IMG/VR virus record: IMGVR_UViG_3300043464_001636
Span: 1-56,230 of that record
DNA length: 56,230 bases
Strand: one strand, 5' to 3'
Source of the DNA: a virus
Taxonomy: Duplodnaviria; Caudoviricetes
Within the stretch, counting starts at the first letter, position 1; the number at the start of each line of letters is the position of its first letter. The position numbers and the translations under genes were made by a program. Of the stretch, positions 268 to 46,187 are shown in pieces. The notes below the pieces were generated by a model that searched no databases, was not told the DNA's origin, and was given only the letters and a program-made list of their open reading frames with translations.

Positions 268-307
268 GTAGATGAAATCCAGACTCGAAACCCTGGAGAT
301 CAAACCA

Positions 308-691
308 ATGACCAAACGAACCATCGAGATCGACGACGTACTCCCCGGCTGTGTTGAGAACGCCATCGAGGAAACCGAGCGCCTGCTGCGCGGGTATCTC
401 GCGGACAACCCCGACATCGACGAGCCGCCGTGCCTGTCGAACGACCTCGATTACGACGGCAGGTTCCACGAAATCATCGACGGGTGCGTGCCTATTTGGA
501 CTAGCCAAATCGAGGCGGCGTGGTTTCTTCACGGCCGCGCGCTGGAAATGGCCTATGAGAACGCCGGCGTGGGCGATAACCCGCGAGAGAACGGCGGCAT
601 GGCGGCGATCTATTACTACATCTACGAGAAAGCCGCCGAGTGGTATCAGCGGAACGTCGATCGGATTTTTGACCAAGTGCGCAATTCATAA
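308..691 (+). CDS. Hypothetical acidic protein
   Basis: ORF 272-691; GGAG RBS favours ATG at 308. Confidence 0.8.
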   Translation: MTKRTIEIDDVLPGCVENAIEETERLLRGYLADNPDIDEPPCLSNDLDYDGRFHEIIDGCVPIWTSQIEAAWFLHGRALEMAYENAGVGDNPRENGGMAAIYYYIYEKAAEWYQRNVDRIFDQVRNS

Positions 692-701
692 CCCCGTCCG
701 A

Positions 702-718
702 GCAAACACAAGGAGACC
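702..718 (+). repeat. Intergenic 17-mer GCAAACACAAGGAGACC containing the RBS; identical copy at 1132-1148
   Basis: Exact match at both positions. Confidence 0.85.
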
Positions 719-724
719 AGTCCG

Positions 725-1120
725 ATGAAAACTTTTCGCGTAGTGCGGTGCTGGCCAGTGGATTACTCCTCGACTGTTGAGGTGGAGGCCGAGACTGTTG
801 AGGAAGCCTGCAGGCTGGCCCTTGAGGACGATGACTATTCCGACGCCGAGTCGTGCGACGGCAGCGACGGCCCGACAGAAATCGACGCCGTGTACGAAGT
901 GGACGAGGACGGTTTCGAGACGAGGTGCGAACTAGAGCCGGAGCCAGCCGGGCCGGACCTGCTGTCGGAACTGAAAACCGTCGTTGACTATCTGGAGCAG
1001 TTGACTGTCTACGAGCGAATCAACTTTGGCGATGACAGCGAACTGATAGCCATAAATGACCGGATCTTGATAAACGCTGCCGCGGCCATTCGGCACGCGA
1101 CTTGCACTGATAACAAGTAG
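725..1120 (+). CDS. Hypothetical very acidic protein
   Basis: ORF with AAGGAG RBS. Confidence 0.8.
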   Translation: MKTFRVVRCWPVDYSSTVEVEAETVEEACRLALEDDDYSDAESCDGSDGPTEIDAVYEVDEDGFETRCELEPEPAGPDLLSELKTVVDYLEQLTVYERINFGDDSELIAINDRILINAAAAIRHATCTDNK

Positions 1121-1154
1121 ACCCGAACGACGCAAACACAAGGAGACCCGAACG

Positions 1155-1451
1155 ATGAAAACACGAGTAGACGCAAGCGGTACGAGTTTTTTCGACACGA
1201 CGATCGACGCAACCATTGAACAGATGGTCGCGGCCATCGGGCCGGCGGATTGCAGCGACAACGGCGGCGGCGGAAAAACAAACTTCGATTGGGCGCGACA
1301 GACTCCGAGCGGCACGGTGTTCACTGTGTACGACTGGAAATACTACCGCCGGCTGCGATCCAAAGAGATCGTGAACTGGCATATCGGCGGGTTCGATAAG
1401 GAATCGACCGAGCAAGCCAGGCGTGAATTGGAACGGCTGTTGCAGAAGTAA
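1155..1451 (+). CDS. Hypothetical phage protein (FTVYDWK...WHIGG motif)
   Basis: ORF with AAGGAG RBS. Confidence 0.8.
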   Translation: MKTRVDASGTSFFDTTIDATIEQMVAAIGPADCSDNGGGGKTNFDWARQTPSGTVFTVYDWKYYRRLRSKEIVNWHIGGFDKESTEQARRELERLLQK

Positions 1452-1475
1452 ACAAACCAGAAGGAGAACACAGCG

Positions 1476-1718
1476 ATGACCTACGAAGAATGGCTAACGA
1501 CCGAAAAGAGACACGCAAATTTCGCGGTTGCCGAAAACGCACTCGGCTACAAGCCGGAAGGTTGCGTCGAGGTAATCGAGTATTCGCCCGGCGTGATTCT
1601 GCGGCTTCAGGATGGATCGTACTTCACGCACGTTGGCCGCGACGATTACGAGGGGACTCTCGATGAAGTGCGCGTCGCGCTTTGGCGAGAGTACGCAAGC
1701 CCGGATTCGGGGTATTGA
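1476..1718 (+). CDS. Hypothetical protein
   Basis: ORF with AAGGAG RBS. Confidence 0.75.
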   Translation: MTYEEWLTTEKRHANFAVAENALGYKPEGCVEVIEYSPGVILRLQDGSYFTHVGRDDYEGTLDEVRVALWREYASPDSGY

Positions 1719-1720
1719 CC

Positions 1721-1912
1721 ATGACAATCATCCCGGCCTGGATACGCAAGCGAGACGAAACCGGAGTGTGGGCGATTCTCGGCAGTGAGCCGCCAATCGA
1801 CGCGCAGGAAGTGTTTGTTCCAGAGTCGCGTATCGAGTCAGTGGTGATGCACGACCAAGAGGTAAACGGCAGGAAGTTCGGAATACTCGTACTCAAGGAG
1901 ACCCCTACATGA
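1721..1912 (+). CDS. Hypothetical protein
   Basis: ATG just after the upstream stop; operon packing. Confidence 0.6.
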   Translation: MTIIPAWIRKRDETGVWAILGSEPPIDAQEVFVPESRIESVVMHDQEVNGRKFGILVLKETPT

Positions 1913-2178
1913 CAACGAGCGGATTCACGCAGGACGTTATCGCGCTGTTTCAGCACGCACCGATCGGGCGAACTCTCGCTCGCCACGCAATCGGCCTTCT
2001 GCAACAAGAGGGCAGCGACCCGGCAGAAACCATGAGGCAAGGAATTGTCGAGGCGCTATCGACAGAAATGCAGGCGGCAAACCCCCTGGTCGCGCAGATC
2101 GTGGCACGCGCTTTGCTCGAACACGTTGATTGGGAGCAGGTTGTCGTGGCTGTGGCGACTGATGAGAAACTCAACTGA
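1909..2178 (+). CDS. Hypothetical protein
   Basis: AAGGAG RBS, ATGA overlap. Confidence 0.7.
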   Translation: MTTSGFTQDVIALFQHAPIGRTLARHAIGLLQQEGSDPAETMRQGIVEALSTEMQAANPLVAQIVARALLEHVDWEQVVVAVATDEKLN

Positions 2179-2188
2179 GGGGCAAACC

Positions 2189-2392
2189 ATGCGAGAGTCT
2201 GACTATCCAGAAGGTGTATATGACAAGTTCACCATCGAGGTCGCCCTAGATGGTGAGACAGGGAATTACATGATCTGGTGCGGCGAGTGGAAGTGCGAAC
2301 TTGCTGGCGGCAAGTGGCCAGGCGCTACGGTGGCAAAGCTCGTTGACGAGATCGCGGCGCACAACAAGTGCGAACTAGAGGAGTCACGGTAA
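2189..2392 (+). CDS. Hypothetical protein
   Basis: GAGG RBS, TAATG overlap with the next gene. Confidence 0.6.
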   Translation: MRESDYPEGVYDKFTIEVALDGETGNYMIWCGEWKCELAGGKWPGATVAKLVDEIAAHNKCELEESR

Positions 2393-2856
2393 TGCAAACT
2401 TTTTTGCCTTGCCCCTCGTTTCTCGACTCGGCCCGCTGCCTCGACTACCGCAGGCTCGGCAAGCAGCGCGTCGAGTGCAAGCAGATCCTTCAGGCGCTCG
2501 GCGTTCCGGTCGGCGGCCCCCTTCGTGACAAGCCAAGCAGTTGGCGCAATCATCCCGCCACCCGTATGTGGCAAGGACACGAATACTCGCTGTGTCTTTA
2601 CGCCATCGCCATCTGCCGGGAGTGGCGCGACCGCGGCTACAAAGACACGCTGCTGCCGCAATTCATGTACGCGGCATCGTGTTGCATGGTGGACGGCGAC
2701 ACTTCGCCGCCGGAGTGGCTGGGGTGTGGCGAGTTCCATTCGTCGCACAGAAGCAACCTCCTGCGCAAACTTCCTTCGCACTACTCGGCGTTCGGGTGGA
2801 GCGAGCCAGACAACCTTGAATATGTCTGGCCGATTGGCACGGCAGTTGCTCTTTAG
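2392..2856 (+). CDS. Pyrimidine-dimer DNA glycosylase / endonuclease V-like protein (MSMEG_6728 family)
   Basis: MQTFLP...LDYRRLGKQRVE...WRNHPATRMW...EW..RGYKD...H.SHRSNLLRK motifs. Confidence 0.85.
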   Translation: MQTFLPCPSFLDSARCLDYRRLGKQRVECKQILQALGVPVGGPLRDKPSSWRNHPATRMWQGHEYSLCLYAIAICREWRDRGYKDTLLPQFMYAASCCMVDGDTSPPEWLGCGEFHSSHRSNLLRKLPSHYSAFGWSEPDNLEYVWPIGTAVAL

Positions 2857-2874
2857 TAATTCCGAAAGGAGATC

Positions 2875-3072
2875 GTGATGAGAAAGCAAACCCCAGTGTT
2901 TCTGACGAAGCGGGAAGCCAACTCGGTGATGGCGGCCCTCGACCAGTTGTTCAGTGTGTACCCAGGCGGGCCGGATTGCCCGAAGTGTGCAAAGGCGCTG
3001 TGGAGCGCGATCGAAAAGATCGACACGGCGTTCGGCATGAAGATCCTTCAAGAGGAGACTAGTGATGAGTGA
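2875..3072 (+). CDS. Hypothetical protein (CxxC)
   Basis: AAGGAG RBS. Confidence 0.65.
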   Translation: MMRKQTPVFLTKREANSVMAALDQLFSVYPGGPDCPKCAKALWSAIEKIDTAFGMKILQEETSDE

Positions 3073-3532
3073 CTTTCTTTCTACATATCGTGACTACGCA
3101 GCAGCCCAACGCAGGGAGGCGGAAGCCGCCCGCGCCACACTGATGCGAGTGCTAAAGGCGGAAGGCGTGACTCGGGTTGAGGTTGAGTTCGACGGCAGCG
3201 GAGACAGCGGAAGCATCGAGGCGCCGGTTTTTTTCAAGCGTCGCGGCAAGGGTTACGCGACGGGGACGGAATTTGCTGGGAAGGAAGTCCCGGGCAGTGA
3301 GTTCGAGGCGAGCGATTGGTCGGGTGGCAAGTGCAAGAAAGTGACTCGCCAAAAAACGATCGGAGAACTCATCGAAGACGTTTGTTACGGCATCCTTGGA
3401 TCAGAACACGGCGGCTGGGAGATCAACGAGGGTAGTTTTGGGACGTTCATTTTCAGAGTTGACGATGACAAGGTTCTCGTGACCTTCAATCAGCGTATCG
3501 AGAGTGTCGAATCCTACGACGAGGAGTATTGA
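3062..3532 (+). CDS. DUF6878-like protein
   Basis: VEFDGSGDSGSIE and GWEINEGSFGTF motifs. Confidence 0.75.
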   Translation: MMSDFLSTYRDYAAAQRREAEAARATLMRVLKAEGVTRVEVEFDGSGDSGSIEAPVFFKRRGKGYATGTEFAGKEVPGSEFEASDWSGGKCKKVTRQKTIGELIEDVCYGILGSEHGGWEINEGSFGTFIFRVDDDKVLVTFNQRIESVESYDEEY

Positions 3533-3534
3533 AA

Positions 3535-3900
3535 ATGGCCAATCCATACCATCACGCGGTTAGTTCACAGCGGAAGTGGGGCGGAAGCATCGAAGACTAT
3601 CAACCAATCCACGACTGGTTCGATGAATCCAAGATGATGATGGCTGACTTCCGCCACCGGGCGCTGCGGCATCACGCGGAGGGGATCTTTATGGCCGAGC
3701 GCATTTTCGGCCACACGATCACAAATTCTGACGGCCGGGTTGTGCCTGTGCGTTTCATCGGAGAGCAGCACGTTCGGGAGGACTTGGGGTTCATTCCGTC
3801 GATGCAGGATTGGTTGCGGCATATCCGGCCGCAGAAATGGATGGGCGAGCCGCCCGTCAAGTTGGAGGAGATTCTTGAACCATCAGTAGTGGAGGTATGA
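3535..3900 (+). CDS. DUF6915-like His-rich protein
   Basis: NPYHHAVSS..KWGG, HDWFDESK, RHRALRHHAEG, GEQHVREDLG motifs. Confidence 0.8.
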   Translation: MANPYHHAVSSQRKWGGSIEDYQPIHDWFDESKMMMADFRHRALRHHAEGIFMAERIFGHTITNSDGRVVPVRFIGEQHVREDLGFIPSMQDWLRHIRPQKWMGEPPVKLEEILEPSVVEV

Positions 3901-3902
3901 CC

Positions 3903-4040
3903 ATGCCGATCGAATTAGACCTCAAGCGAGAAGAAGTAGACGAGGCGATGGCAGAGCTGGAGCGGCTTTTGATCCAGGCCGAAGAAGCATACGAATTCAT
4001 GGTGTGGGAACATGAAAGCGAAAACCGAGATTCTGACTGA
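3903..4040 (+). CDS. Small acidic hypothetical protein (45 aa, not in ORF track)
   Basis: GGAGG RBS at 3891; MPIELDLKREEVDEAMAELE...; fills the gap between neighbours. Confidence 0.5.
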   Translation: MPIELDLKREEVDEAMAELERLLIQAEEAYEFMVWEHESENRDSD

Positions 4041-4329
4041 ATACCGCGTGTCGCCGCGCGTCGTTCTTCGCACTGGCGACAAGTTCCGCGTCACGGGCGG
4101 GCCATACGTCCGTGACGCGGAGGGTGAGAAGATTGCTATGGCATACCGTGGGGTCTGCACGTTCGTTCGCGCCGAAAAGACCGGAGCGCGAGTGCATATC
4201 TACGCAACCAATAAAACTGGAACAGTCCTGCTGCACGTTGCCGGCCGTCGCAGGAACGAGTATGTGCCGGATCTGGTTTGCCGTCCCTACAAAATCAAGG
4301 GGCGGGTCAGGAAGGGGGTTCGTAAGTGA
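4012..4329 (+). CDS. Hypothetical basic protein
   Basis: ORF in operon. Confidence 0.7.
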   Translation: MKAKTEILTEYRVSPRVVLRTGDKFRVTGGPYVRDAEGEKIAMAYRGVCTFVRAEKTGARVHIYATNKTGTVLLHVAGRRRNEYVPDLVCRPYKIKGRVRKGVRK

Positions 4330-4580
4330 AGAAGAACGCAGAGAACCAAAAGCCGTTCACGACGTTCGTTCGTGAATACATGGCCGGCTTCGTGGCCGGC
4401 GAAGATGCGGACGCTATCGCCAAGCGGCTGGAGACAACTCCGGCGGCGTTGCTGGTGTACGCGTCCGATCTGCGGAAGCGTGGCGTCGCGCTGCCGCGGC
4501 TCAACGAGCGGTTCGACGCAGGGCATCTCAACAGCATGATCCGAAACGCGAAAAGAAAGGCGAAGTCATGGGCGCAGTGA
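4326..4580 (+). CDS. Hypothetical protein, possible helix-turn-helix
   Basis: ADAIAKRLETTPAAL...SDLRKRGV pattern. Confidence 0.65.
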   Translation: MKKNAENQKPFTTFVREYMAGFVAGEDADAIAKRLETTPAALLVYASDLRKRGVALPRLNERFDAGHLNSMIRNAKRKAKSWAQ

Positions 4581-4843
4581 AAGAAGCGATGATGGAGTGT
4601 CACGAAGCCGGATTGGTCTGGGTGAACGAGGATTTCGGTATCCCGTTCATGGAAAACCAAGCGGCACGCGACTTGCTTGCAGGTATGCCACTCAGGCACA
4701 CTATCACGAATCGCTGGGGCGAGCCGTGCGAACTGCCGGTAATCCCTGTGGCTGTGGCTGTGCGTCTGGAGAGATTGTTTCCCGAAGAACTAAACGACAC
4801 GATCGGATGGCAACTCGACATGATTGCGGAGACCCTAACATGA
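4568..4843 (+). CDS. Hypothetical protein
   Basis: Overlapping operon packing. Confidence 0.65.
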   Translation: MGAVKEAMMECHEAGLVWVNEDFGIPFMENQAARDLLAGMPLRHTITNRWGEPCELPVIPVAVAVRLERLFPEELNDTIGWQLDMIAETLT

Positions 4844-5004
4844 CAAACAGAATCCAGAAATACGACGCCCTCGAATGGCTGGCGTTTCTCGTTGAGCACG
4901 GGCTCATCGAGTACGGCGAGCCAGTGGTGGCAACTCACGAAGCGATGATGAACAGTCCAGAGATCTGCAGCCTGGAAGGAGGCGACGATGAATCGGAAGG
5001 ATAA
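4840..5004 (+). CDS. Small hypothetical protein, similar to 5376-5564
   Basis: GGAG RBS, ATGA overlap; NRIQKYDALEWLAFLVE. Confidence 0.6.
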   Translation: MTNRIQKYDALEWLAFLVEHGLIEYGEPVVATHEAMMNSPEICSLEGGDDESEG

Positions 5005-5434
5005 TCTTGTCGATGCCGACTATGTTGCAGACCTCCACGGCGTAAGCCGAAGGACTGTGCTGCGAGCGGCCATGAAGCAAAACGCGGCCACGAAACTTGG
5101 GAACAAGTATTTCGTTCAGCCTGACGTTCTTGGCAAAGACCCGTCCGTGGCAAAAGCGGCGCAGCCGCTGGTCGGTGCCATCACACTGCAGGAGGCGGCT
5201 CGCCGGCTGGGGTGCTCGCGGTCTACAGTCCTTCGCGTCTGCGAGCGGACGAAGTTGGGCATCAAGGTTGGTAGCCGAAGGTATGTCCTCGAACGCAAAC
5301 TCGAAGACATCAAGTTCAACATCCTCAAGCCAGGTTTGCCGCTACGATTCCACGACCCCGCGGAGATGAAGGCCCATGCGTCACGAATGGCTCGAAGACT
5401 GTGGCGAGTGCGGAAATCGGCTAAAGCGGTATGA
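4988..5434 (+). CDS. DNA-binding protein with two excisionase/HTH_17-like repeats
   Basis: VADLHGVSRRTVLR and EAARRLGCSRSTVLR repeats, each followed by a wing-like K(L/V)G..Y segment. Confidence 0.75.
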   Translation: MNRKDNLVDADYVADLHGVSRRTVLRAAMKQNAATKLGNKYFVQPDVLGKDPSVAKAAQPLVGAITLQEAARRLGCSRSTVLRVCERTKLGIKVGSRRYVLERKLEDIKFNILKPGLPLRFHDPAEMKAHASRMARRLWRVRKSAKAV

Positions 5435-5564
5435 CGTTCGCGCTTGGCTGGAACTGCTCGTCGAGATAAAAGTCATCCGAGAAGATAGCGTCGGCGAGGT
5501 CGCCCACTCGATCCGCCGGCGCTTCCTCGATGGCTACTATCCTTGGCAGCCCAAAGAAGAGTGA
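5376..5564 (+). CDS. Small hypothetical protein, similar to 4840-5004; start uncertain
   Basis: NRLKRYDVRAWLELLVE. Confidence 0.45.
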   Translation: MRHEWLEDCGECGNRLKRYDVRAWLELLVEIKVIREDSVGEVAHSIRRRFLDGYYPWQPKEE

Positions 5565-7836: not shown

Positions 7837-8051
7837 TTGTCGGATCCAGCAACCAGGGCCAGCGTGAGCGCGTCAATGGCCTTCTTCTGCTCGTCGGCAA
7901 GATTCTCCGTCGCAAGCAGGCGAGCGCGGACGAGCGCAAGGTTCGCAATCGCTTCTTGGTACGTTGGCCCTACCTTCGGAATTACCTTCAGTTGCGGCCA
8001 CAGGCCGACCGCCACTGCGGCCACTGCGGCCGCTATCTGCGCCCAGTTCAT
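7833..8051 (-). CDS. Small membrane protein (holin/spanin-like candidate)
   Basis: MNWAQIAAAVAAVAVGLWP; ATGA overlaps. Confidence 0.65.
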   Translation of the reverse strand: MNWAQIAAAVAAVAVGLWPQLKVIPKVGPTYQEAIANLALVRARLLATENLADEQKKAIDALTLALVAGSDK

Positions 8052-8320
8052 GTGCTCACCTTTGCGACAACCCAATCAAACGCCGCCTTGCCCTCGTTGC
8101 TCTTCAGGATCGCCTCGATATGAAAAAGAGCCTCGTCGTCGAGTTCCGTATTTGACTTGCCAGCAGCCCACTGCAGAGCGTCGACGATAGCCGTCGCTCT
8201 TTCCATCGGCTCCCTGGCCTCGAAGATCACCTGAAGGCGCGCAATCAGCGGAGCCCACTCAGTCAGAAGCTTGATCTTCTCCAGAAAGCTCAGATTGCTG
8301 CCGTAAACTTCCTCGTCCAT
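8048..8320 (-). CDS. Hypothetical protein
   Basis: AAGGAGG RBS in a hairpin loop. Confidence 0.75.
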   Translation of the reverse strand: MDEEVYGSNLSFLEKIKLLTEWAPLIARLQVIFEAREPMERATAIVDALQWAAGKSNTELDDEALFHIEAILKSNEGKAAFDWVVAKVST

Positions 8321-8486
8321 CTTTTTGCGCCTCCTTGCGCTCGTGCTTTGCTCGAAACAAAAGGTAAGACACGCTGTCCGTGCGTCGTCTGCTTGTAAGC
8401 TTGCCCCAGTGGCTCGGCGGCGGCTCCGGGACGCTGGCCATCAGCGGCGGCTCGTCGTTGCCGTAAGCCAATGGGTTGTCATTCAT
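8259..8486 (-). CDS. Hypothetical protein
   Basis: ORF fills the operon gap but overlaps the next gene by 62 nt. Confidence 0.45.
   Translation of the reverse strand: MNDNPLAYGNDEPPLMASVPEPPPSHWGKLTSRRRTDSVSYLLFRAKHERKEAQKDGRGSLRQQSELSGEDQASD
8327..8340 (-). promoter_or_regulatory. RBS stem-loop GCGC-AAGGAG-GCGC, candidate CsrA site
   Basis: 4-bp stem with ANGGAN hexaloop, 6 nt before the ATG at 8320. Confidence 0.6.
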
Positions 8487-8667: not shown

Positions 8668-8995
8668 GATTATGTCCTCCGGTAGCCTCTTTCATTCTAC
8701 CGAAGTCAGCGCCCCCAATGCGGGCTTCCCGCTCCGCCGGTGTCCACGATTGGCGTATCTCTGCGCACGCCAGCCGTATCTCGGCGGGCGTCGGAATGTA
8801 GTCGTTCGGCTCGACGCGCTCTGGTAATTGCATGTGCTCGGCGATGTCGAGCACCATCGCAGTCGTGAAATCCACGATCTCGCAATCGCCGAAATCGACA
8901 GACGAGATAGAAAGCTCTTCTGCGACCTCATCAAGAGTCAGCCCTCCTCGCCACAGCCTTCGCATGGCACGCTTCTGATTTGGCGTCAATCTCAT
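8630..8995 (-). CDS. HTH-containing hypothetical protein, paralog of 11356-11646
   Basis: LTLDEVAEELSIS HTH-like segment; PTPAEIRLACAEIRQSWT. Confidence 0.7.
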   Translation of the reverse strand: MRLTPNQKRAMRRLWRGGLTLDEVAEELSISSVDFGDCEIVDFTTAMVLDIAEHMQLPERVEPNDYIPTPAEIRLACAEIRQSWTPAEREARIGGADFGRMKEATGGHNHAGGSAPADSRP

Positions 8996-12157: not shown

Positions 12158-12591
12158 CAGACTCGCTCCCATCGCTGGACGTTCTTGCGCTCAAAGAGTT
12201 GCGGATAGACTCCTGCCCTGCGGGCGACGAGCAGCATGTGCGGATGAAACACGGCGATATTTCCGCTGCCGTAAAGCGGCCCAGCCGTCAGCGCGCTCAC
12301 GGCAAGCGTGGCCAGCCCCCGGTTGCGGAGTTGCGGGCTGACGAAGGCTTCGAGCGTGTCCCACGAACAGGCTGGGTTTTCCTCCCAGCGCTCACTTCTC
12401 GCCCAGCCGACGATCTCGCCGTCGAGTTTCACGACCGCCAGATAGCCGTCGTCTTCGTGCGGCGTGTCTCCGGCCCTGTAACGACGCAACTTCTTCTGAA
12501 AGTCGCTTCCGGTGTGACACAGGTGTTCGGAGATCTCGCGGAAATACTTCTGGAACGCGCCGATCTCATCGAGAACAAGTTTCAGCCTCAC
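12157..12591 (-). CDS. GNAT-family acetyltransferase
   Basis: DGEIVGWA and motif A FVSPQLRNRGLAT; AAGGAGG RBS before GTG. Confidence 0.72.
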   Translation of the reverse strand: MRLKLVLDEIGAFQKYFREISEHLCHTGSDFQKKLRRYRAGDTPHEDDGYLAVVKLDGEIVGWARSERWEENPACSWDTLEAFVSPQLRNRGLATLAVSALTAGPLYGSGNIAVFHPHMLLVARRAGVYPQLFERKNVQRWERV

Positions 12592-13303
12592 GCAGCCTCC
12601 TTTGTGCAATCGCGGCGTACTCTGGATTCAGTTCGATGCCGATGCCGTCGCGGTACATTTCTTGTGCCACGGCGAGCGTTGTGCCAGACCCCAGAAACGG
12701 ATCGAGCACGACGTCGCCTGGGTTGCTCGAGACGCCGATGATGCGACGCACGAGTTCAGACGGCAGTTGCGTCGGCACGCCCTTGACGCGTTCCTTGAAC
12801 GTCCCGCACACGCGGCTGATCTTCCAGACGTCGCCCATGATCTTGCCGCCGGCGGCTGCCCGCTTGTCGCCGTAGACTTCTTGGCGGGCCGAAGGAACAG
12901 TCACGACTTCAGAATTGAAGGTGAAGTTCTTATCGTCCTTGACGGCGTAATAGATCGGCCTGCTCGTTCGGGCGAACTTCTTCCGACACTGGACGCCAAA
13001 GGTCTCGTGCCAAGTGATGCGGTTGCGGATGGCGAAATCACAGTTCTGCAGGGCGATGTCGATGTCGGCCCCGTGCTCTTGGCCGCTGATGATCCAGATG
13101 GAGCCGTGAGGCTTGAGCGCTCGGTAGCACCAGTTGATCCATCGCTCGCACCAAATGTCGTAGTCGGCTCGCCTGTCGGCTCGCTGTCCAGATCCGTAGT
13201 CGATTCCGATGTTGTACGGCGGGTCGGCAACAATGAGGTCGACGCTATCGCGGGGGAGTTCAGACAGCACTTTGCAGCAGTCGCCGACGATGATGTTGGT
13301 CAT
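12566..13303 (-). CDS. DNA N6-adenine/N4-cytosine methyltransferase (beta class)
   Basis: DPPY precedes DPFLGSGTT. Confidence 0.93.
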   Translation of the reverse strand: MTNIIVGDCCKVLSELPRDSVDLIVADPPYNIGIDYGSGQRADRRADYDIWCERWINWCYRALKPHGSIWIISGQEHGADIDIALQNCDFAIRNRITWHETFGVQCRKKFARTSRPIYYAVKDDKNFTFNSEVVTVPSARQEVYGDKRAAAGGKIMGDVWKISRVCGTFKERVKGVPTQLPSELVRRIIGVSSNPGDVVLDPFLGSGTTLAVAQEMYRDGIGIELNPEYAAIAQRRLREAETCSR

Positions 13304-14232
13304 AGGGCGAGAATCCTTTCTCCAATCCATCGCATCACCGGCACGGCCATCGAGTTGCCTACGGCGCCGTAGCGGGCCGTGTCTGATGCAGGTTTCCCTT
13401 TGAACAAGATGTCTGTGTGAGAGCCAGAGAATCCCTGAAGTCTCTCGAACTCAGATGGCGTAAGCCTGCGTGGCCGGCCGTCTGGCTCGACGATGATCGT
13501 TGTTGCACGAGAGTCGCCGCAGTCGAACAGCGTTGCCGTCGGCGAAATGTCGCCTCGAACCCAGGTCTCGCAGTCTGTTTTGCTCTGCGCCCGGCGGGAC
13601 TTCGTGAACACTAGACGGCCATCAGTGCCGCCTGAAGTTCCGGTGGTAGCGACTTCCCTTTCCTCGAACCCCTCTCCAAAATCCCCCGACAGGTCTTTCG
13701 GCTCAAAAAGAACTTCTGCGGCACGCTCTGAACCTCGAGAATTTCCGACAAGGAACAAGCGACGGCGCCGCTGTGGAACTCCGAAGTATTTAGCGTCGAG
13801 TATCCGGTACGCGAACCCATAGCCGAACTCATCCAGCGCCCCGAGGATGGCGCCAAAGTCCCGTCCTCCGTTCGCAGTAAGGACGCCTGGGACGTTTTCC
13901 CAGACGACCCACTGCGGCTGCATTTGCCCGACGAGCTGCATGAACCGCATGGCGAGGTTCCCTCGCGGGTCTGACAGCCCCTCGCGGACGCAGGCCGCAA
14001 CGCTAAATGACTGGCAGGGGGTTCCTCCGACAAGAATGTCAACTGCTCCTCTTTCATGGATCGCCTCCGGCCGGATGGCCGTCATATCTCCCAGGTTGGT
14101 GACTCCGTACCGCTGTTCGCAGACACTCGCCGCGAACGCGTCGATTTCACTCACCCATGCACATTCCATGCCAAGCGGCATCCATGCTTCGTGAACTGCG
14201 CCGATTCCATCGCACACGCTGGCGTATCTCAC
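13300..14232 (-). CDS. DNA cytosine-C5 methyltransferase
   Basis: CDGIG, GTPCQSFS, ENV, QRRRR, RRLTPSEFERLQGF, GNSM. Confidence 0.95.
   Translation of the reverse strand: MRYASVCDGIGAVHEAWMPLGMECAWVSEIDAFAASVCEQRYGVTNLGDMTAIRPEAIHERGAVDILVGGTPCQSFSVAACVREGLSDPRGNLAMRFMQLVGQMQPQWVVWENVPGVLTANGGRDFGAILGALDEFGYGFAYRILDAKYFGVPQRRRRLFLVGNSRGSERAAEVLFEPKDLSGDFGEGFEEREVATTGTSGGTDGRLVFTKSRRAQSKTDCETWVRGDISPTATLFDCGDSRATTIIVEPDGRPRRLTPSEFERLQGFSGSHTDILFKGKPASDTARYGAVGNSMAVPVMRWIGERILAL
13309..13322 (-). promoter_or_regulatory. RBS stem-loop GAGA-AAGGAT-TCTC, candidate CsrA site
   Basis: ANGGAN hexaloop 5 nt before the ATG at 13303. Confidence 0.55.
13611..14057 (-). CDS. Nested alternative-frame protein resembling the M.EcoHK31I beta polypeptide
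   Basis: GGAGG-N6-ATG; SSGRWMSSAM...TLNTSEF...CSLSEILE...FFLS...GILER...GKSLP; lies wholly inside the C5-MTase gene. Confidence 0.7.
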   Translation of the reverse strand: MKEEQLTFLSEEPPASHLALRPASARGCQTREGTSPCGSCSSSGKCSRSGSSGKTSQASLLRTEDGTLAPSSGRWMSSAMGSRTGYSTLNTSEFHSGAVACSLSEILEVQSVPQKFFLSRKTCRGILERGSRKGKSLPPELQAALMAV

Positions 14233-14327
14233 TCCTCACCGCCCGTCATGTACGGCCAGATGGACAAATAGAAAACGAGGCCGGCGAGCGCCAGGATGGC
14301 GCCGGCGTTGGCTAGGTCGTGATTCAT
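14229..14327 (-). CDS. Small membrane peptide (32 aa)
   Basis: MNHDLANAGAILALAGLVFYLSIWPY; start/stop overlaps at both ends. Confidence 0.5.
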   Translation of the reverse strand: MNHDLANAGAILALAGLVFYLSIWPYMTGGEE

Positions 14328-14497
14328 TGCTTCGCCGGCTTCTCTGCGAGAAGCTCCTCGCGGAGTACGCGAATCTGCTCCGGCGCCTTGATGCCAAGCC
14401 GCACCCGGCCGTTTGGCAGCACTGCCGCGATCACGATCTCGACGTTCAACTCTGGGAGAACGACCTTCTCTCCCTCTTTTCTCGTCACAACAAGCAT
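14324..14497 (-). CDS. csrA: Carbon storage regulator CsrA/RsmA-family RNA-binding protein (57 aa, not in ORF track)
   Basis: Manual translation MLVVTRKEGEKVVLPELNVEIVIAAVLPNGRVRLGIKAPEQIRVLREELLAEKPAKQ; keeps MLxxTR.xGE, VRLGI.AP and R-E-E. Confidence 0.92.
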   Translation of the reverse strand: MLVVTRKEGEKVVLPELNVEIVIAAVLPNGRVRLGIKAPEQIRVLREELLAEKPAKQ

Positions 14498-14499
14498 CG

Positions 14500-14515
14500 T
14501 CCGACTCCTTTCGGA
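14500..14515 (-). promoter_or_regulatory. csrA RBS stem-loop TCCGA-AAGGAG-TCGGA, candidate autoregulatory site
   Basis: Perfect 5-bp stem with ANGGAN hexaloop, 2 nt before the ATG. Confidence 0.65.
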
Positions 14516-14532
14516 ATATGTGCTTTGGTAGC

Positions 14533-15009
14533 CTATGACCGACCCGCACGAGAGTCAAGCCACGTTCTGCACGCTTTCTGAACCGCGGCTCTTTTATGAG
14601 AACAAGCCGCCCACTCGATGTAGTCCATGCCGTTCTCTTCTTTTGCCGCATCGTCAATCGTGCGTCCCTCGAATATGCCGTCGCGGAAGGTGAAGGTCTG
14701 TCCCTGTGATTCTGGAAGAATCCCGGGAACAGACGTCACCCACTGACCAGTCCCGCAGATCATGCACTCCAGTTTCCATTCGTCCTTGTAGTCGTCGATG
14801 ATGTCGAACTGCTGCGATTTGCATCGCGTATCTGCACACTCATGCAAATCGCGTACCTGTCCGAGAATTTCGGCTGTGTAGATCGGAGGAGGGAAATCAG
14901 TCGTGGCTTCGGACGAAGCCACGACCTGCTCTCCCATTCTCCGACTAGACCTGCCCTTCTTTTTGACTGGCTCGTCGTCAGAGATGTCGAACAGAAGGCT
15001 CTGGTTCAC
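14533..15009 (-). CDS. Hypothetical protein with Zn-ribbon-like Cys pairs
   Basis: CADTRC...CMICG; GTGA overlap with the helicase stop. Confidence 0.65.
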   Translation of the reverse strand: MNQSLLFDISDDEPVKKKGRSSRRMGEQVVASSEATTDFPPPIYTAEILGQVRDLHECADTRCKSQQFDIIDDYKDEWKLECMICGTGQWVTSVPGILPESQGQTFTFRDGIFEGRTIDDAAKEENGMDYIEWAACSHKRAAVQKACRTWLDSRAGRS

Positions 15010-18623: not shown

Positions 18624-19397
18624 CTACTCCTCGTCCTCGATCTCCACGGTGCCGCCACCAATCGGCGGGGTCGTGAACATCGCGCGGATCGGATCCGCGT
18701 AGGTGCGCCGAGCCACCTCTCCCTGCTCCTCGGACAACTGCCCGACGAGCCGCGGAACGATCTGGCTGTAGGGCTGACCGCCCTTGCCCTTCGCCCGCGT
18801 CAACTTCAGGCCGACGACAGCCTCGTGCGGGAAGCACGGCAACCGCTTGAGGAACGGGATGATGTTCCGCAGGCTGCCTGGGCCGACCGTCACGAGGATC
18901 GGCCACGTTTCGTTCTGACGAAGAATCGCCAAAACACGCGCCTCCTTGCACCGCTTGCCGCTGCCAGACCGCGACGTCCCGTAGCCGAACTCGACAGAGC
19001 TGGCCAGGGCCGCCCAGTCGTACTTCCGATCCCCGATCCTGTAGCGCTCGAGCGCGTCCGGGTTGATCGTTCCCAGATCGTCCGACACCCGGTAGCCGAT
19101 CTGCAGATCGTTCGACACGAGCACCGGACGAGACTCCGACGGGTCTTCCGCCGGCCACAAGATCCCCTTCTTGCCGACGCCGACGAGCAGCCCGACGATC
19201 TCGTCGGTCGTCTCGACGTTGCCGTCGACGTCAATCGACCACTGCGTCGCACCGCCCAGAGGCGTCTTGACGCGAACGAGATCCGTCTCGTTCATCTGCT
19301 CGCCTTCCAGATTGGCAGAAATGATCTGCATCTGGCGGCTGTTCGGCGCGAGCGCCGGGTAGTCGACCGTCTTGGTCGACAAGGCCGTAGTGACCAT
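18624..19397 (-). CDS. Replication-module protein, possible ssDNA-binding protein
   Basis: AAGGAG RBS; beta-rich with acidic C-terminal tail EIEDEE; position in module. Confidence 0.6.
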   Translation of the reverse strand: MVTTALSTKTVDYPALAPNSRQMQIISANLEGEQMNETDLVRVKTPLGGATQWSIDVDGNVETTDEIVGLLVGVGKKGILWPAEDPSESRPVLVSNDLQIGYRVSDDLGTINPDALERYRIGDRKYDWAALASSVEFGYGTSRSGSGKRCKEARVLAILRQNETWPILVTVGPGSLRNIIPFLKRLPCFPHEAVVGLKLTRAKGKGGQPYSQIVPRLVGQLSEEQGEVARRTYADPIRAMFTTPPIGGGTVEIEDEE

Positions 19398-19441
19398 AAA
19401 TCAACTCCTTCTTCTTCTGTAGTTAATCAACCGTACCAGCG

Positions 19442-19882
19442 TCAGCCAACCGTGACATGACGCAACTTCATCTCCACGAACTCGCCCACGACGCCCTCGA
19501 AGGGCGTCCCTGCGGCGAACGACCGGCCGGCCTCCCTGCCGGCTTCTTTGGCACGTTCGACCAGCCACGCCTTGAGCGTAGGCGTGGCTACCGTCGTGAT
19601 CGCATCCTCGATCCCGATGGCTCGCGCTGCCTCCAGCACCGCGTCGCGCCGATCCTTCGGCACCGACAGGTGAAGGGACTCCTCCACCCGCCAACTCCTC
19701 CCTGCGACTCGAACTCCGTCGAGCCGTTGTGTTTTCATTTCTTCCACTGCCAGACCTTCCAAGTCAGCGCGTTGACGCTTCAGTTCGTCCGCCTGTGCAG
19801 ATAGCGTGCCAATCGTTTTGTCGAGCTGCGTGATTTTCTCAAGCAGCGACGACAGTTCTTCTGTACCCGTCAATGATGGCAT
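19442..19882 (-). CDS. Conserved-type phage protein (coiled coil plus TLKAW motif)
   Basis: AGGAGG RBS. Confidence 0.7.
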   Translation of the reverse strand: MPSLTGTEELSSLLEKITQLDKTIGTLSAQADELKRQRADLEGLAVEEMKTQRLDGVRVAGRSWRVEESLHLSVPKDRRDAVLEAARAIGIEDAITTVATPTLKAWLVERAKEAGREAGRSFAAGTPFEGVVGEFVEMKLRHVTVG

Positions 19883-21853: not shown

Positions 21854-21867
21854 TTTCAAGGAGGAAA
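21854..21867 (+). promoter_or_regulatory. RBS stem-loop TTTC-AAGGAG-GAAA, candidate CsrA site
   Basis: ANGGAN hexaloop 2 nt before the ATG at 21870. Confidence 0.55.
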
Positions 21868-21869
21868 GC

Positions 21870-22076
21870 ATGGCAAGGCGGTACGCCGTAATTGTGGACT
21901 GGACAGATGGCGAGGTTGTCGATGCCGACGAGGTTGTCGTTTACGCAGACTCTGCGGCAGAGGCAATCAGGAAGGCCAGAAGTAAGTGGAGGATTACGGT
22001 CGGCGCCGTGTGGCCGCATTGTCGACTGGATCGTGCCTGGATTCTCACTCCCAGCAGGCGGCTGGGGGTTGTGTAG
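21870..22076 (+). CDS. Hypothetical protein
   Basis: AAGGAGG RBS. Confidence 0.7.
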   Translation: MARRYAVIVDWTDGEVVDADEVVVYADSAAEAIRKARSKWRITVGAVWPHCRLDRAWILTPSRRLGVV

Positions 22077-22115: not shown

Positions 22116-22985
22116 GTGATTTGCAACAACGATAGCTTGACCCTCCGCGGGTGCTGCCGCGACGTATACGCACCGCTACGCGCCATCTCGCCGCGGACGC
22201 TGAAGCTCTACCTGTTCACGATCGACGCCTTCGGCGCATTCATCGGCCACGAGCCGACGACCGCCGATCTTGAGGAACTGGTCGTAGCTCAGTTCTTGGC
22301 CCACCGCACGCGCACCCGCGCAGCGGCCACAGCCGCGAAGGATCGGGCGTGCCTCCATGCCCTGTGGGAGTTCCTAGCGCGCCGCAAGGCGGTCAGCACA
22401 TGGCCGACGATTCCTACCGTCAACGTGCCTGAGCGAGTCCCAGAGGCGTGGCTGACCGAGGAGTTCGCCAGGCTCCTGGCTGCGGCTCGGGCCGAGAAGA
22501 CGACGATCGCGGGCGTCCCCGGTGGCCTCTGGTGGCGCGCACTTTTACTGCTGGCCTACGATACGGGCGAGCGCATCGCTGCACTGACGGCGGTGCGTTG
22601 GGCCGACGTCCGCCCCGGCTTCGTACTGTTTAGGGCCGAGACGCGCAAGGGCCGCCGCCGCGACATCGTCCGCGAGGTCGGCGAGGAGACACAGGCGGCG
22701 CTCGAGGCGATCCGCGGCGATCGTGACCTCGTTTTCCCTTGGCCTTATTGCCACACATACCTCTGGACGAGGCTGTCTATCATCCTACGGCGCGCGAACC
22801 TGCCCGCTGGTCGCCGCGACAAGTTTCACCGGATAAGAAGGACGACCGCGAGCTACTACGAAGCCGCCGGCCATTCGGCCCAGCGGCTGCTCGATCATGC
22901 CTCGCCGGCCACAACCCGCCGATATCTCGATCCGCGGGTTGTGCAGACCGTTGCGGCGCCGTCGGTCATTCCAAAGGTGAGCTGA
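22116..22985 (+). CDS. int: Tyrosine recombinase/integrase; start uncertain
   Basis: YDTGERI (R), TRK (K), FHRIRRT (HxxR), LLDH, TTRRY (Y). Confidence 0.9.
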   Translation: MICNNDSLTLRGCCRDVYAPLRAISPRTLKLYLFTIDAFGAFIGHEPTTADLEELVVAQFLAHRTRTRAAATAAKDRACLHALWEFLARRKAVSTWPTIPTVNVPERVPEAWLTEEFARLLAAARAEKTTIAGVPGGLWWRALLLLAYDTGERIAALTAVRWADVRPGFVLFRAETRKGRRRDIVREVGEETQAALEAIRGDRDLVFPWPYCHTYLWTRLSIILRRANLPAGRRDKFHRIRRTTASYYEAAGHSAQRLLDHASPATTRRYLDPRVVQTVAAPSVIPKVS

Positions 22986-26922: not shown

Positions 26923-27279
26923 TCAAGTCTTGAGGGTGACGAAAGCGACGGCGGCCGTGGAGTGCGTGTTGGCCGAGACGAGCTTAATCGCCCCGCAACC
27001 GTAAACGGCATCTGGAAGGGCGTACATGCGGAATTCGGTCGTCGACGGTGCGAGAGTGATGTCGGCGGCCGAACCGTCGGAATTGTATAGCCGACCGAAC
27101 GAGGTCGTCACGCCGTCGCTGGCCCACACCTGGATCGTGGCGGCGTTGGTGCTGACGGTCCCCATCTCGAGGGCGCCGCCGGCAACGTCGTCCCACCGCA
27201 GCGTGGTAGCAGACGCGGTGACCGTCGCCATCGTCACGGCGACGGTCTTAAACTTGCGACGAATCTTCGGCTCAGACAT
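26923..27279 (-). CDS. Beta-rich hypothetical (probably virion) protein
   Basis: AAGGAGG RBS; Thr/Ala-rich. Confidence 0.7.
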   Translation of the reverse strand: MSEPKIRRKFKTVAVTMATVTASATTLRWDDVAGGALEMGTVSTNAATIQVWASDGVTTSFGRLYNSDGSAADITLAPSTTEFRMYALPDAVYGCGAIKLVSANTHSTAAVAFVTLKT

Positions 27280-27281: not shown

Positions 27282-27295
27282 GCACCTCCTTGTGC
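27282..27295 (-). promoter_or_regulatory. RBS stem-loop GCAC-AAGGAG-GTGC, candidate CsrA site
   Basis: Compensatory variant of GCGC-AAGGAG-GCGC. Confidence 0.6.
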
Positions 27296-27327: not shown

Positions 27328-27918
27328 TCACAGGCTATCTGCCATTGTATCATTGAGCAGCCAATCGAGGGCTTTATCGACGCGCTCCAGCAGGCCGGCG
27401 ACGTCGGTGTCGTTGACAATGCTGACGTCGATGAGTTCATTTGGCACTCCTGCCTCCGAGGAGTGCCGGCGAGCCTCGTCGGGGACGCCGGAGAGTGGCG
27501 TCGGCCGCACGATCTCAATGATGTGGCCGCCGCGCTCTCGAATGGCCTGGGCTTCGTTGGCGAAGCGGACGTCGGTAACGACGAAGCTTGCCTTGTCGCT
27601 CCACCTCCCCATTGCGTGAGAGTAGGCGTCGATACGCCGGAAAAGGTTCTTGATCCAGATGTCGTCGCCCAGCGTTCCCCTGCCCCATTCGGTGCCGAGG
27701 GTCTGAAGCAACCGCCGCGGCGAGGTGCCGATCCACGCGATGTCGGCCTCCTTCACCTTGCGGTCGCCCATCTTCTCGACCGGCAGGCCCGTCATGGCCG
27801 CGACCATGGCGTAGAGCGGGTCGGCCAGAGCGAGTTTCAGGCAGCCGTGGGCTTTGAATAGGTGCGACGCCACAGTGTCTTTGCCAGCCCCAGCGGCGCC
27901 GGTGAGTCCGATCAGCAT
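27328..27918 (-). CDS. Deoxynucleoside monophosphate kinase
   Basis: IGLTGAAGAGKDT, ADPL, PRRLLQTLGTEWGR, VTDVRF.NE, HSSE. Confidence 0.92.
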   Translation of the reverse strand: MLIGLTGAAGAGKDTVASHLFKAHGCLKLALADPLYAMVAAMTGLPVEKMGDRKVKEADIAWIGTSPRRLLQTLGTEWGRGTLGDDIWIKNLFRRIDAYSHAMGRWSDKASFVVTDVRFANEAQAIRERGGHIIEIVRPTPLSGVPDEARRHSSEAGVPNELIDVSIVNDTDVAGLLERVDKALDWLLNDTMADSL

Positions 27919-27919: not shown

Positions 27920-28093
27920 TCATTTCTCCTGGTGGCGTTCTTCCATCACTGCAATTCGGTAGGTGAGCCGCTCAATCTCCTCAAGCGCCCGGCCGAGGGC
28001 CGCGGCCAGCGTCCCGTTGGCGGCCGTCCAGGCGTTCGGCGGACCGTATTTGTTCACAAGGATCCAGGCGCGTTGGATTTCGTCGTGGGTCAT
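27920..28093 (-). CDS. Small hypothetical protein (57 aa, not in ORF track)
   Basis: MTHDEIQRAWILVNKYGPPNAW...; ATGA overlap; fills the gap. Confidence 0.6.
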   Translation of the reverse strand: MTHDEIQRAWILVNKYGPPNAWTAANGTLAAALGRALEEIERLTYRIAVMEERHQEK

Positions 28094-29139: not shown

Positions 29140-29345
29140 GATTGCTCCTTCAACAGTGCCTCGACTGCCTGACATACGGCCGCCAGCGTGATGCCAGCAA
29201 ACTGCCCTGCGGCGAACGCCTCTTTGATTGCCGAGAGTCGCTTCTTCGCGTCTGCCGGCAACTTGGAGAACCACGACTTCCTGTGGTCGCGGCTCATGGC
29301 GGCCCCGGCGATCTTCATCACGAATTCCAGGTCTTTCGCCATCAC
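29079..29345 (-). CDS. Hypothetical protein
   Basis: Operon packing. Confidence 0.6.
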   Translation of the reverse strand: MMAKDLEFVMKIAGAAMSRDHRKSWFSKLPADAKKRLSAIKEAFAAGQFAGITLAAVCQAVEALLKEQSWPVPKSPNTISRWLRSSDT

Positions 29346-29632: not shown

Positions 29633-29654
29633 CTCTAAAGTGTCGGCCGGTAGC

Positions 29655-40427: not shown

Positions 40428-40441
40428 CCTCATCCTTGAGG
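40428..40441 (-). promoter_or_regulatory. Stem-loop CCTC-AAGGAT-GAGG at the tape-measure start, candidate CsrA site
   Basis: ANGGAN hexaloop 2 nt before the ATG. Confidence 0.6.
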
Positions 40442-46159: not shown

Positions 46160-46187
46160 TCACCTGCTCCTGTTGTGAGGAGCGGGC

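Follow-up and report, generated by a model that had tools for sequence, protein, structure and literature searches.

We analysed the whole of virus record IMGVR_UViG_3300043464_001636, a window of 56,230 bp with ~60% G+C that comes from a siphovirus-like, probably temperate phage. The window encodes a 57-aa CsrA, and hairpins with an A-N-GGA-N hexaloop coincide with the Shine–Dalgarno sequence (SD) of several phage genes, csrA included. Judging from sequence, we consider it probable that these hairpins link the phage's own mRNAs into a Csr-type network of translational operators, in which CsrA from the phage controls its own synthesis at its SD. The hairpins exceed chance expectation, their stems change in a compensatory manner among relatives, and the family that bears them is precisely the one in which csrA is a core gene.

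The phage encodes a CsrA protein

A first-pass annotation of this DNA, made from the letters alone, had read the open reading frame at 14324–14497 (− strand) as CsrA. The 57-aa product matched Pfam family PF02599 (CsrA) at 51.5 bits, above the cut-off of 27 (E value 9.5e-14), residues 1–52 covering model positions 1–50 of 53, and its residues 1–51 aligned with the solved chains of E. coli CsrA (1y00), Yersinia CsrA (2bti) and RsmE (2jpp). Relative to these it retains the MLVVTRK-GE N-terminal strand and the VRLGIKAP....VLREEL stretch; column for column, the phage segments MLVVTRKEGE and VRLGIKAPEQIRVLREEL stand against MLILTRRVGE and VRIGVNAPKEVSVHREEI of 1y00. Small size (the class of about 55–75 aa), the conserved N-terminal strand and the GxxAPxxxxVxREE stretch are all present, and the protein ends shortly past VLREEL, without a C-terminal extension. 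Residues of the MLxLTRR-like strand and of the VxREE stretch of CsrA contact RNA, and the arginine is essential. Excerpts of PMC9928087 name a VHRE/D site and an R44A mutant. By this alignment the product is a CsrA, and it would be expected to act as an (interdigitated) homodimer. Among 5.8 billion proteins there were 43 relatives of the phage CsrA (54–77 aa), most on contigs of 60 kb or less, which is phage-sized. A cultured-phage collection gave no match to 16 kb of the window (megablast) or to the phage CsrA (tblastn).

The csrA gene lies beside DNA methyltransferase and replication genes, and is flanked by three elements:

14500–14515, − strand: operator hairpin TCCGA-AAGGAG-TCGGA, with the SD as its loop and the ATG 2 nt further on; folding free energy −4.9 kcal/mol
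14530–14558, − strand: putative promoter, TTGACT, 17 nt, TAGGCT, upstream of csrA
14281–14294, − strand: terminator-like hairpin with T run, 30 nt past the csrA stop

The TAGGCTAC box upstream of csrA is shared by six relatives (L002, L087, L088, L089, L090 and L097). A scan for the sigma-70 consensus left both csrA and the capsid leader described below without a called promoter, so the csrA promoter is one that we infer; both assignments are based solely on conserved TTGnnn and TAGGCT boxes in alignments. A Csr sponge RNA was also sought: the whole window gave 0 Rfam matches at gathering score, and no intergenic stretch held more than six GGA in a scan for sponges of the CsrB, RsmY or RsmZ type.

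Hexaloop hairpins at ribosome-binding sites

All eleven sites listed by the first-pass annotation (nine hexaloops and two pentaloops) are present in the sequence, with two corrections: the one at 21854 lies on the + strand, before the ATG at 21870, and the one at 46188 is not at a start codon but 29 nt upstream of it. Besides the csrA operator and the pentaloops, the sites, with two that the annotation did not list (8371–8385 and 19648–19661), are as follows:

8327–8340, − strand: GCGC-AAGGAG-GCGC, SD of 8048–8320 (90 aa, function unassigned by PHROGs and Pfam); kept in L001 and L002
8371–8385, − strand: second GGA-loop hairpin ACGC-ACGGACA-GCGT in the leader of 8048–8320
13309–13322, − strand: GAGA-AAGGAT-TCTC, SD of DNA methyltransferase gene 12566–13303
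19648–19661, − strand: GCCG-AAGGAT-CGGC, inside gene 19442–19873; membership uncertain
21854–21867, + strand: TTTC-AAGGAG-GAAA, SD of the 68-aa gene 21870–22076, just upstream of integrase gene 22116–22985
27282–27295, − strand: GCAC-AAGGAG-GTGC, SD of 26923–27279 (118 aa)
29142–29153, − strand: TTG-AAGGAG-CAA (3 bp only), SD of exonuclease gene 28090–29139; free energy +1.6 kcal/mol, the weakest member
40428–40441, − strand: CCTC-AAGGAT-GAGG, SD of tape-measure gene 35182–40425; the TGA of the upstream gene lies inside
41798–41811, − strand: GCGC-AAGGAG-GCGC, SD of the putative tail tube gene 41456–41791
46187–46202 (core 46188–46201), − strand: G(G)CGC-AAGGAC-GCGC(C), 29 nt upstream of the ATG at 46159, in the leader of 45431–46159

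The window thus holds ten A-A-GGA-N hexaloops, nine of them on stems of 4 bp or more, and in eight of the ten (the exceptions being 46188 and 19657) the hairpin ends 3–7 nt before the called start codon. The closing pair is mostly C-G (GCGC, GCAC, CCTC, TTTC; 18 of the 24 distinct rows of alignment A2). In isolation the hairpins are weak (+1.6 to −6.2 kcal/mol), a marginal stability as expected of a site clamped by protein and not of a self-sufficient block. Possible paired GGA sites, noted case by case, occur in the leaders of the capsid gene (33 nt apart), of the gene starting at 8320 (~45 nt) and of the gene starting at 46159 (loop GGA and SD GGA).

PHROGs and Pfam gave no function for the products of 8048–8320, 26923–27279 and 21870–22076, and one further target product is weakly GT2-like (E 4.8e-5, below the cut-off). 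For the 111-aa product of 41456–41791 the predicted fold is tube-like (mean predicted local distance difference test score 76.7; best Foldseek E 1.5e-3), and its top Foldseek matches are all tube, Hcp or Dit proteins. On this modelled fold and its position after the tail completion gene we call it a putative tail tube gene.

At the tape-measure site the preceding gene ends with a TGA inside the hairpin, in the 3′ half of its loop and stem (40428–40432, − strand). The arrangement hints that a terminating ribosome would melt this operator, coupling translation of the chaperone-like gene 40430–40687, which follows a weak Phage_TAC_1 match at 40696–41067, with that of the tape measure.

Gene 19442–19873 and its neighbour 18624–19397 contain six hairpins with GGA in the loop within ~550 nt (19168–19719, − strand; at 19718, 19657, 19608, 19537, 19286 and 19168), two of which are kept in G001, one of two near-complete relatives scanned whole (the other is G002). 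The region encodes a conserved protein (85% amino-acid identity in G001), and coding constraint may explain this conservation. The same may account for the 19648 site, kept in L001, L002 and G001, where a real protein has its conserved residues PKDRR encoded. Translation might also begin internally at 19639, where an in-frame GTG stands 8 nt past the 19657 hairpin.

As the first-pass annotation had noted, the AAGGAG SDs of the early + strand genes (725, 1155, 1476, 1909, 2878 and 4988) have no such stems; none of the six is stem-flanked. Four of these starts (725, 1155, 1476 and 1909) share a near-identical unstructured context, (a)acaCAAGGAGAcc, and a spacer of 9 nt before the ATG. Set against the hairpin sites, these unstructured early sites suggest that the genome has initiation regions of two classes.

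The hexaloop hairpins exceed chance

Perfect stems of 4 bp or longer flank nine of the 68 AAGGAN on the sense strand and none of the 23 on the antisense strand. Stem lengths at the 68 sites are bimodal: 0–2 bp at 58 of them, 3 bp at one, 4 bp at eight and 5 bp at one. In 20,000 permutations of the 3′ flanks the mean count was 0.65 and the maximum 6, so none reached nine, and in 300 dinucleotide shuffles of the − strand, where eight of 59 sites are observed, the mean was 0.28 and the maximum 2. The comparison with shuffled flanks that had been proposed as a check thus came out strongly in favour of the hairpins. Genome-wide, hexaloops of any sequence with such a stem occupy 332 of 56,204 positions (0.59%), and on the − strand the commonest are AAGGAG and AAGGAT. 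The broader A.GGA. pattern occurs in hairpins at 11 of 295 sites in the window, against 1.74 expected.

The excess is confined to hexaloops. Sense AGGAN pentaloops with a stem of at least 3 bp are at chance (4/253, permutation mean 4.44), which removes the two pentaloop sites claimed earlier (19887, GAC-AGGAG-GTC; 30104, TAC-AGGAG-GTA), and GGA anywhere in a loop of 4–8 nt showed no genome-wide enrichment. For the hexaloop set chance is excluded.

The hairpins are kept in relatives while their stems covary

IMG/VR holds 222 relatives of the capsid protein; we fetched the best 80 (76–91% identity) together with five loci found via CsrA. In these 85 loci, sense AAGGAN carried a stem of at least 4 bp in 123 of 1,125 cases and antisense AAGGAN in 3 of 335, with a background of 0.70%; many of the loci are close kin, and 123/1,125 is not a count of events. 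For the A.GGA. pattern, G001 had 7 of 182 sites in hairpins against 1.14 expected (0/5,000 permutations), and G002 5 of 177 against 1.15 (26/5,000).

A profile search of relatives' whole records found csrA in 5/5 of a first set and 2/5 of a second, 7/10 in total. All seven records with an estimated completeness of at least 67% carried it, and the three without were fragments (52–56% complete). Read from upstream sequences, the csrA SD lies in a hexaloop hairpin at eight of ten family csrA loci, window included, so the hairpin that the first-pass annotation had seen over this SD is conserved, with compensatory stems: TCCGA/TCGGA in the window and L002, GCTGA/TCAGC in L086–L089 and L097, and CGGA/TCCG in L096. 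L001 has no such hairpin and L090 a 3-bp variant.

For the other genes, orthologous starts were located by tblastn and distinct 45-nt upstream sequences compared. The hairpin at the putative tail tube gene is present in 22 of 22 (GCGC in 18, CACGC/GCGTG in two, GAGC/GCTC in two), and is kept although the sequence flanking it is not alignable across relatives. At the tape-measure start, where the site overlaps the final codons (Q-G-stop) of the gene before it, stems of 4 bp or longer occur in 7 of 14 distinct relatives (CCTC/GAGG, CTTC/GAAG, ACTC/GAGT, CGTC/GACG); elsewhere there are several 3-bp versions, and three loci have no GGA. In the leader of 45431–46159, GCGC-A.GGA.-GCGC is found in 32 of 34 distinct relatives, with A1, G3, G4 and A5 of the loop fixed and positions 2 (A/T/C/G) and 6 (T/A/C/G) free. 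Both upstream sequences available for 8048–8320 have the hairpin. The 27282 site reads CGCAC/GTGCG in G001 and GCAC-AGGGAG-GTGC in G002, and the 21854 site has other stems of 3–4 bp (by eye, CGG/CCG in L002 and CTC/GAG in L001; AAGA/TCTT in G002, with orthology assumed from position).

The covariation analysis that had been suggested as a check was run on 29 ribosome-binding-site 16-mers anchored on the SD GGA. This set mixes three non-homologous sites (tail tube, tape measure and csrA) and its rows were not selected for pairing; duplicates were dropped, as were csrA rows L001, L002 and L004 and tape-measure row L007 (anchored on another GGA). A 4-pair stem was formed in 90.6% of cells against 47.1% after shuffling, and the covariation score was 0.923 against 0.179 (0/500 shuffles); slid registers gave 19–55%.

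For the capsid, 46240–46689 and protease genes, AGGA lies within 20 nt of the start in 32 of 37, 34 of 37 and 28 of 32 distinct upstream sequences, and none of the 37, 37 and 32 has an SD hairpin; portal and terminase starts likewise have none. The genome-wide regulon of the first-pass annotation was overstated, and about 9–12 sites is the better figure. Distant capsid relatives on contigs (L108–L113) of metagenome-assembled genomes (MAGs) do have a few ribosome-binding-site hairpins (3/74 and 4/127 A.GGA. sites). The pieces of L108–L113 fetched, which are fragments, carry no csrA; the csrA matches of those genomes are on other contigs.

Structured leaders of 45431–46159 and the capsid gene

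The 80-nt spacer 46160–46239 (− strand) is almost invariant in 32 distinct relatives and folds into four hairpins: CCCG/CGGG, CGGCC/GGCCG, the A.GGA. hairpin and CGCTCC/GGAGCG. Upstream of the capsid gene, conserved TTGCAC and TAGGCT-type boxes are followed by two hairpins with invariant apical GGA, so that this gene has two GGA-loop sites in its leader although its SD lacks a hairpin.

46166–46183, − strand: fourth leader hairpin GCTCCT-CACAAC-AGGAGC, sequestering the real SD of 45431–46159
48167–48191, − strand: capsid-leader hairpin 1, CTCC-G-GACGA-GGATT-TCGTC-A-GGAG, apical GGA
48139–48154, − strand: capsid-leader hairpin 2, CTTTGA-GGAT-TCAAGG, its apical GGA lying 33 nt past the one in hairpin 1

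In 32 distinct sequences, compensatory change affected nine of nine pairs of capsid hairpin 1 and five of six pairs of hairpin 2 (79.7% of cells paired; deleted in three of the 32). Over both hairpins, 14 of 15 pairs were compensatory, and 86.9% of cells were paired against 70.4% after shuffling (0/500), slid registers giving 35–49%.

Between capsid hairpin 2 and the SD, conservation is also strong at 48075–48135 (− strand), a GC-rich structure that reads GCGGCG..GCGGGA..CCCGCCGGCCG.CGC and continues into a T-rich run and TTGGCCGGC. Its GCCGGCC and GGCCGGC segments may pair alternatively, as in a leader terminator/antiterminator; a terminator scan called nothing at 48075–48135.

The TAGGCT boxes of csrA and the capsid gene belong to a motif, (T/G)AGGCTAC(C/A), which with at most one mismatch occurs 13 times, where 3.19 are expected and none of 100 shuffles attained 13. 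Upstream of gene starts there are five copies, all on the − strand (14527–14535, 48203–48211, 29649–29657, 41818–41826 and 8681–8689), those at csrA and the capsid leader 17–18 nt past TTGACT and TTGCAC. In relatives the motif aligns with TACATT/TACAAT-type boxes. The motif, which the scan for the sigma-70 consensus leaves uncalled, probably represents the −10 region of middle or late phage promoters.

Other csrA-bearing viruses and the candidate host

Three cultured csrA-bearing phages, scanned whole or nearly whole, had no excess of A.GGA. hairpins: Pseudomonas phi297 (2/305, 1.84 expected), Providencia PSTCR8lys (1/228, 1.17 expected) and Vibrio 219E41.2 (0/293, 1.12 expected). Two csrA-bearing viral contigs were likewise not enriched (G162, 4/300; G163, 0/99). 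The hairpins are thus a feature of this family and not of csrA-bearing phages at large.

Among 185,579 species genomes a single capsid relative was found, on a 9.9-kb contig of a Planctomycetaceae MAG, and eight of the 151 genomes of that GTDB family carry capsid relatives, five at 37–77% identity. A CsrA relative (P0023, 62% identity), on a 51-kb contig labelled as a Caulobacteraceae MAG, conflicts with this, and a Planctomycete host is on that account a tentative lead, not a fact.

All six genomes of the candidate host family that were searched have 4–5 PF02599 matches each, and fliW is present in 39 of 41. In a 124.5-kb sample of the host MAG, A.GGA. hairpins were not in excess (2/441 against 2.8 expected). 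The lone AAGGAG case, GGCA-AAGGAG-TGCC, lies 6 nt before the start of fliW, with a csrA of ~89 aa 60 nt downstream of fliW. Across the family (L131:4962-5753, which is G006:C190, and L145–L174), the fliW start has a 4-bp hexaloop hairpin in 27 of 30 genomes (GGCA in 19, GGCG with a G-U pair in seven, GGTA/TACC in one), position 2 of the loop being A, T, G or C; two of the remaining genomes have a pentaloop form and one has none. By this comparison the Csr locus of the candidate host lineage uses the same operator architecture as the phage, which ties that architecture to a bona fide Csr locus and suggests CsrA control of the fliW–csrA operon in this Planctomycete family. We know of no described Csr operators in the phylum, a statement made without a literature search, and the fliW site offers a first look at Csr operators in Planctomycetes. 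Were the true host to lack a chromosomal csrA, the phage CsrA would be the only candidate binder.

A model of phage-encoded Csr control and its alternatives

In the model we favour, a short 57-aa CsrA would be produced from an apparently monocistronic unit consisting of promoter-like box, hairpin ribosome-binding site, gene and terminator-like hairpin. Its dimer would bind the GGA in the apical A-N-GGA-N hexaloop of 4-bp hairpins, a loop that doubles as SD in about eight phage mRNAs. Because loop and SD are one, bound CsrA would clamp the hairpin and exclude the 30S subunit, resulting in translational repression. The targets would be csrA, the putative tail tube, the tape measure, the small pre-integrase gene, the exonuclease, the methyltransferase and two genes of unassigned function, and binding of CsrA at its own SD would provide negative feedback. 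In the 45431–46159 leader the hexaloop site lies beside the SD-sequestering hairpin, and the two capsid-leader GGA hairpins, 33 nt apart, have a spacing that would suit bridging by one dimer. The phage CsrA as binder, repression as effect, and timing or dosage of tail and other genes as purpose of the circuit are what we infer from this arrangement.

Several observations weigh against this model. In the 46160–46239 leader, the 46188 hairpin included, 0 of 20 pairs covary, the stems being invariant, so that its hairpins draw their support from conservation with variable loops only. The hairpin of methyltransferase gene 12566–13303 was conserved in none of seven relatives, and part of the conservation at the tape-measure site may be coding. 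The relatives are metagenomic contigs, many mutually close, and the counts are not independent events. No csrA-less relative is in the sample, so csrA and hairpins are not dissociable there, and, as the five other viruses show, such sites need not accompany a csrA gene in a phage. A tail tube protein, probably abundant, fits poorly as a target with a logic of keeping doses low; the heterogeneous target set does not fit a simple low-copy-protein logic, and a timing or titration logic is possible. Finally, the fliW site shows that host CsrA paralogues share the operator, and host proteins could be the binders.

This last point is the core of the alternative that survives best, which we nevertheless regard as unlikely: that host CsrA paralogues bind the hairpins, plugging tail and other phage genes into the host Csr/FliW state, and that the phage CsrA mainly reprogrammes host targets such as flagellar and defence genes. 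The fliW hairpin of identical type in 27/30 host-family genomes, the 4–5 PF02599 matches in each of six of them and the five csrA-bearing viruses without internal sites all fit this view, and host manipulation has been proposed as the role of phage RsmA/CsrA (PMC8450108, in excerpt). Against it stands the operator over csrA's own SD, with compensatory stems in 8/10 members; its conservation is hard to explain unless the level of phage CsrA is tied to occupancy of the site. That csrA is core to just the hairpin-bearing family also speaks for the phage protein. The two views are not exclusive, and both proteins may bind.

Going beyond translational control by the phage CsrA, the data can be assembled into a self-contained Csr timer, a joint reading that we hold to be doubtful. 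The truncated CsrA, not antagonised by FliW and made early from its own promoter, would shut off host flagellar Csr targets and restrain the phage tail-tube, tape-measure and integrase-side genes. The very abundant late capsid transcript, with two covarying GGA hairpins of supposed high affinity in its leader, would then titrate CsrA and free tail translation, so that heads come before tails, and in a lysogen CsrA would be a post-transcriptional lock on leaky late transcripts. If true, an mRNA-leader sponge, as in flaA of Campylobacter, would serve as a developmental clock within a virus.

Rather improbable, in our judgement, are hairpins that work without CsrA, whether because the stems display the SD or a standby site in the open within GC-rich mRNA and promote initiation, or because another factor or a nuclease binds. 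The loops are good SDs (AAGGAG), the genome has 60% G+C, the weak stems would not block ribosomes on their own, and one target is the probably abundant tail tube protein. Yet the 46188 and capsid-leader hairpins keep the A and GGA while other loop positions drift, which fits read-out by a protein better than pairing with the anti-SD; hairpins are missing from the AGGA SDs of the capsid and protease genes, which are highly expressed, as stems are from the AAGGAG SDs of early genes; and the same structure is found at the host fliW–csrA locus. That chance, or the composition of a GC-rich genome with SD-rich sequence, produced the set as an artefact is scarcely credible: pentaloops and the general class of GGA in any loop are indeed at chance, but none of 20,000 permutations reaches the hexaloop count, the antisense count is 0/23, the excess is replicated in two further genomes (G001 and G002), and hairpins are kept with covarying stems while flanks diverge.

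Relation to known systems

CsrA/RsmE operators that overlap the SD include those of P. fluorescens hcnA and E. coli glgC. The phage sites resemble such operators in the A-N-GGA-N loop, the mostly C-G closing pair, the coincidence of loop and SD and, where present, a second GGA tens of nucleotides away (33 nt in the capsid leader). They differ in being all on phage mRNAs, in stems that are almost uniformly 4 bp, and in a regulator gene that is phage-borne. Excerpts of PMC9928087 support A-N-GGA-N as the recognition pattern of CsrA/RsmE, and excerpts of PMC4894983 describe the high-affinity site as a 'CANGGANG-containing apical hexaloop' with an optimal intersite distance of 18 nt.

The CsrA–FliW partner switch (B. 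subtilis hag, C. jejuni flaA) offers a second comparison, the candidate host family having fliW directly upstream of csrA. According to the same excerpts of PMC4894983, in C. jejuni an abundant target mRNA has a leader bearing two GGA hexaloops, which is acted on by CsrA and titrates it as well; by analogy, the flaA leader is a possible model for the phage capsid leader. These systems differ in that the phage CsrA has 57 aa and the host CsrA beside fliW ~89 aa.

CsrA and Rsm proteins on mobile elements, likewise, include RsmQ of pQBR103 and the csrA products of F116/phi297, DC1 and PTXU04. CsrT of Legionella integrative and conjugative elements is reportedly another CsrA homologue of this kind. 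A 2020 survey, as excerpted, counted CsrA in 30/2517 phage genomes (PMC7366521), and excerpts of PMC8450108 report GenBank and IMG/VR surveys of phage csrA with host manipulation as the usual proposal. From excerpts of PMC11879866 (2025), knock-down of csrA in PTXU04 leads to small plaques, and what csrA does during the phage cycle is called untested. Among Pseudomonadaceae plasmids, those that encode rsm show a tendency towards a larger number of genes with predicted rsm sites (Kolmogorov–Smirnov p = 0.012; PMC9928087, in excerpt). In the passages of these studies available to us, the stress is on control of host genes, and conserved operators on an element's own structural genes are not described. 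Unlike the present family, phi297 and two other cultured csrA-bearing phages have no hexaloop enrichment.

Phage translational repressors with RNA operators include T4 RegA, T4 gp32 and gp43, and the MS2 and PP7 coat proteins acting on the replicase hairpin. By analogy with these, one phage protein would bind several phage ribosome-binding sites, its own included, and the MS2/PP7 target is, as here, a short hairpin containing the initiation region. They differ in their unrelated folds; here a captured bacterial global regulator would act through an operator shared with the host lineage.

The first-pass annotation knew of no described phage-internal CsrA regulon, and our full-text searches found none either: no conserved CsrA operators on a phage's own genes were found, with most subscription journals and supplements (including lists of csrA-bearing phages, which may name the csrA of this family) outside their coverage. 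Catalogues of csrA in phages date back to 2020; what this whole phage family adds is conserved, covarying CsrA-type operators on a phage's own mRNAs, that of csrA included. If the phage CsrA binds them, a captured global regulator has been turned into a virus-internal translational programme. The case also shows that such regulons are detectable from sequence alone in uncultured viruses. The test set is small and cheap, with about ten hairpins of 14–16 nt, one 57-aa protein and natural compensatory variants.

Gene content of the window

Open-reading-frame calling gave a + strand block at 272–5564 and a nearly unbroken − strand block at 5772–55849. The window also encodes a UvrD-like helicase, Prim-Pol and an SNF2 helicase for replication. 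Other assigned genes are:

53866–55368: large terminase
52265–53866: portal
50733–52304: protease
46708–48060: major capsid protein
41812–42240: tail completion protein (Tail_completion_gp17)
35182–40425, − strand: tape-measure-sized gene, 1747 aa
28090–29139: exonuclease
22116–22985, + strand: tyrosine integrase
12566–14232: two DNA methyltransferases

The earlier remark that no classical CI repressor is evident agrees with the Pfam scan as far as that scan went, a partial one of 20 proteins, in which the only helix-turn-helix match was HTH_17 in an excisionase-type DNA-binding protein (4988–5434, + strand). Further accessory genes encode a pyrimidine-dimer DNA glycosylase (2392–2856, + strand; PF03013, E 1.5e-20) and a deoxynucleoside monophosphate kinase-like protein (27328–27918, − strand). 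The 24 sequencing runs listed for near-identical DNA include no RNA dataset. Lake and freshwater metagenome runs carry such DNA, with at least half of the sampled words present in seven runs, two of which are possibly the source.

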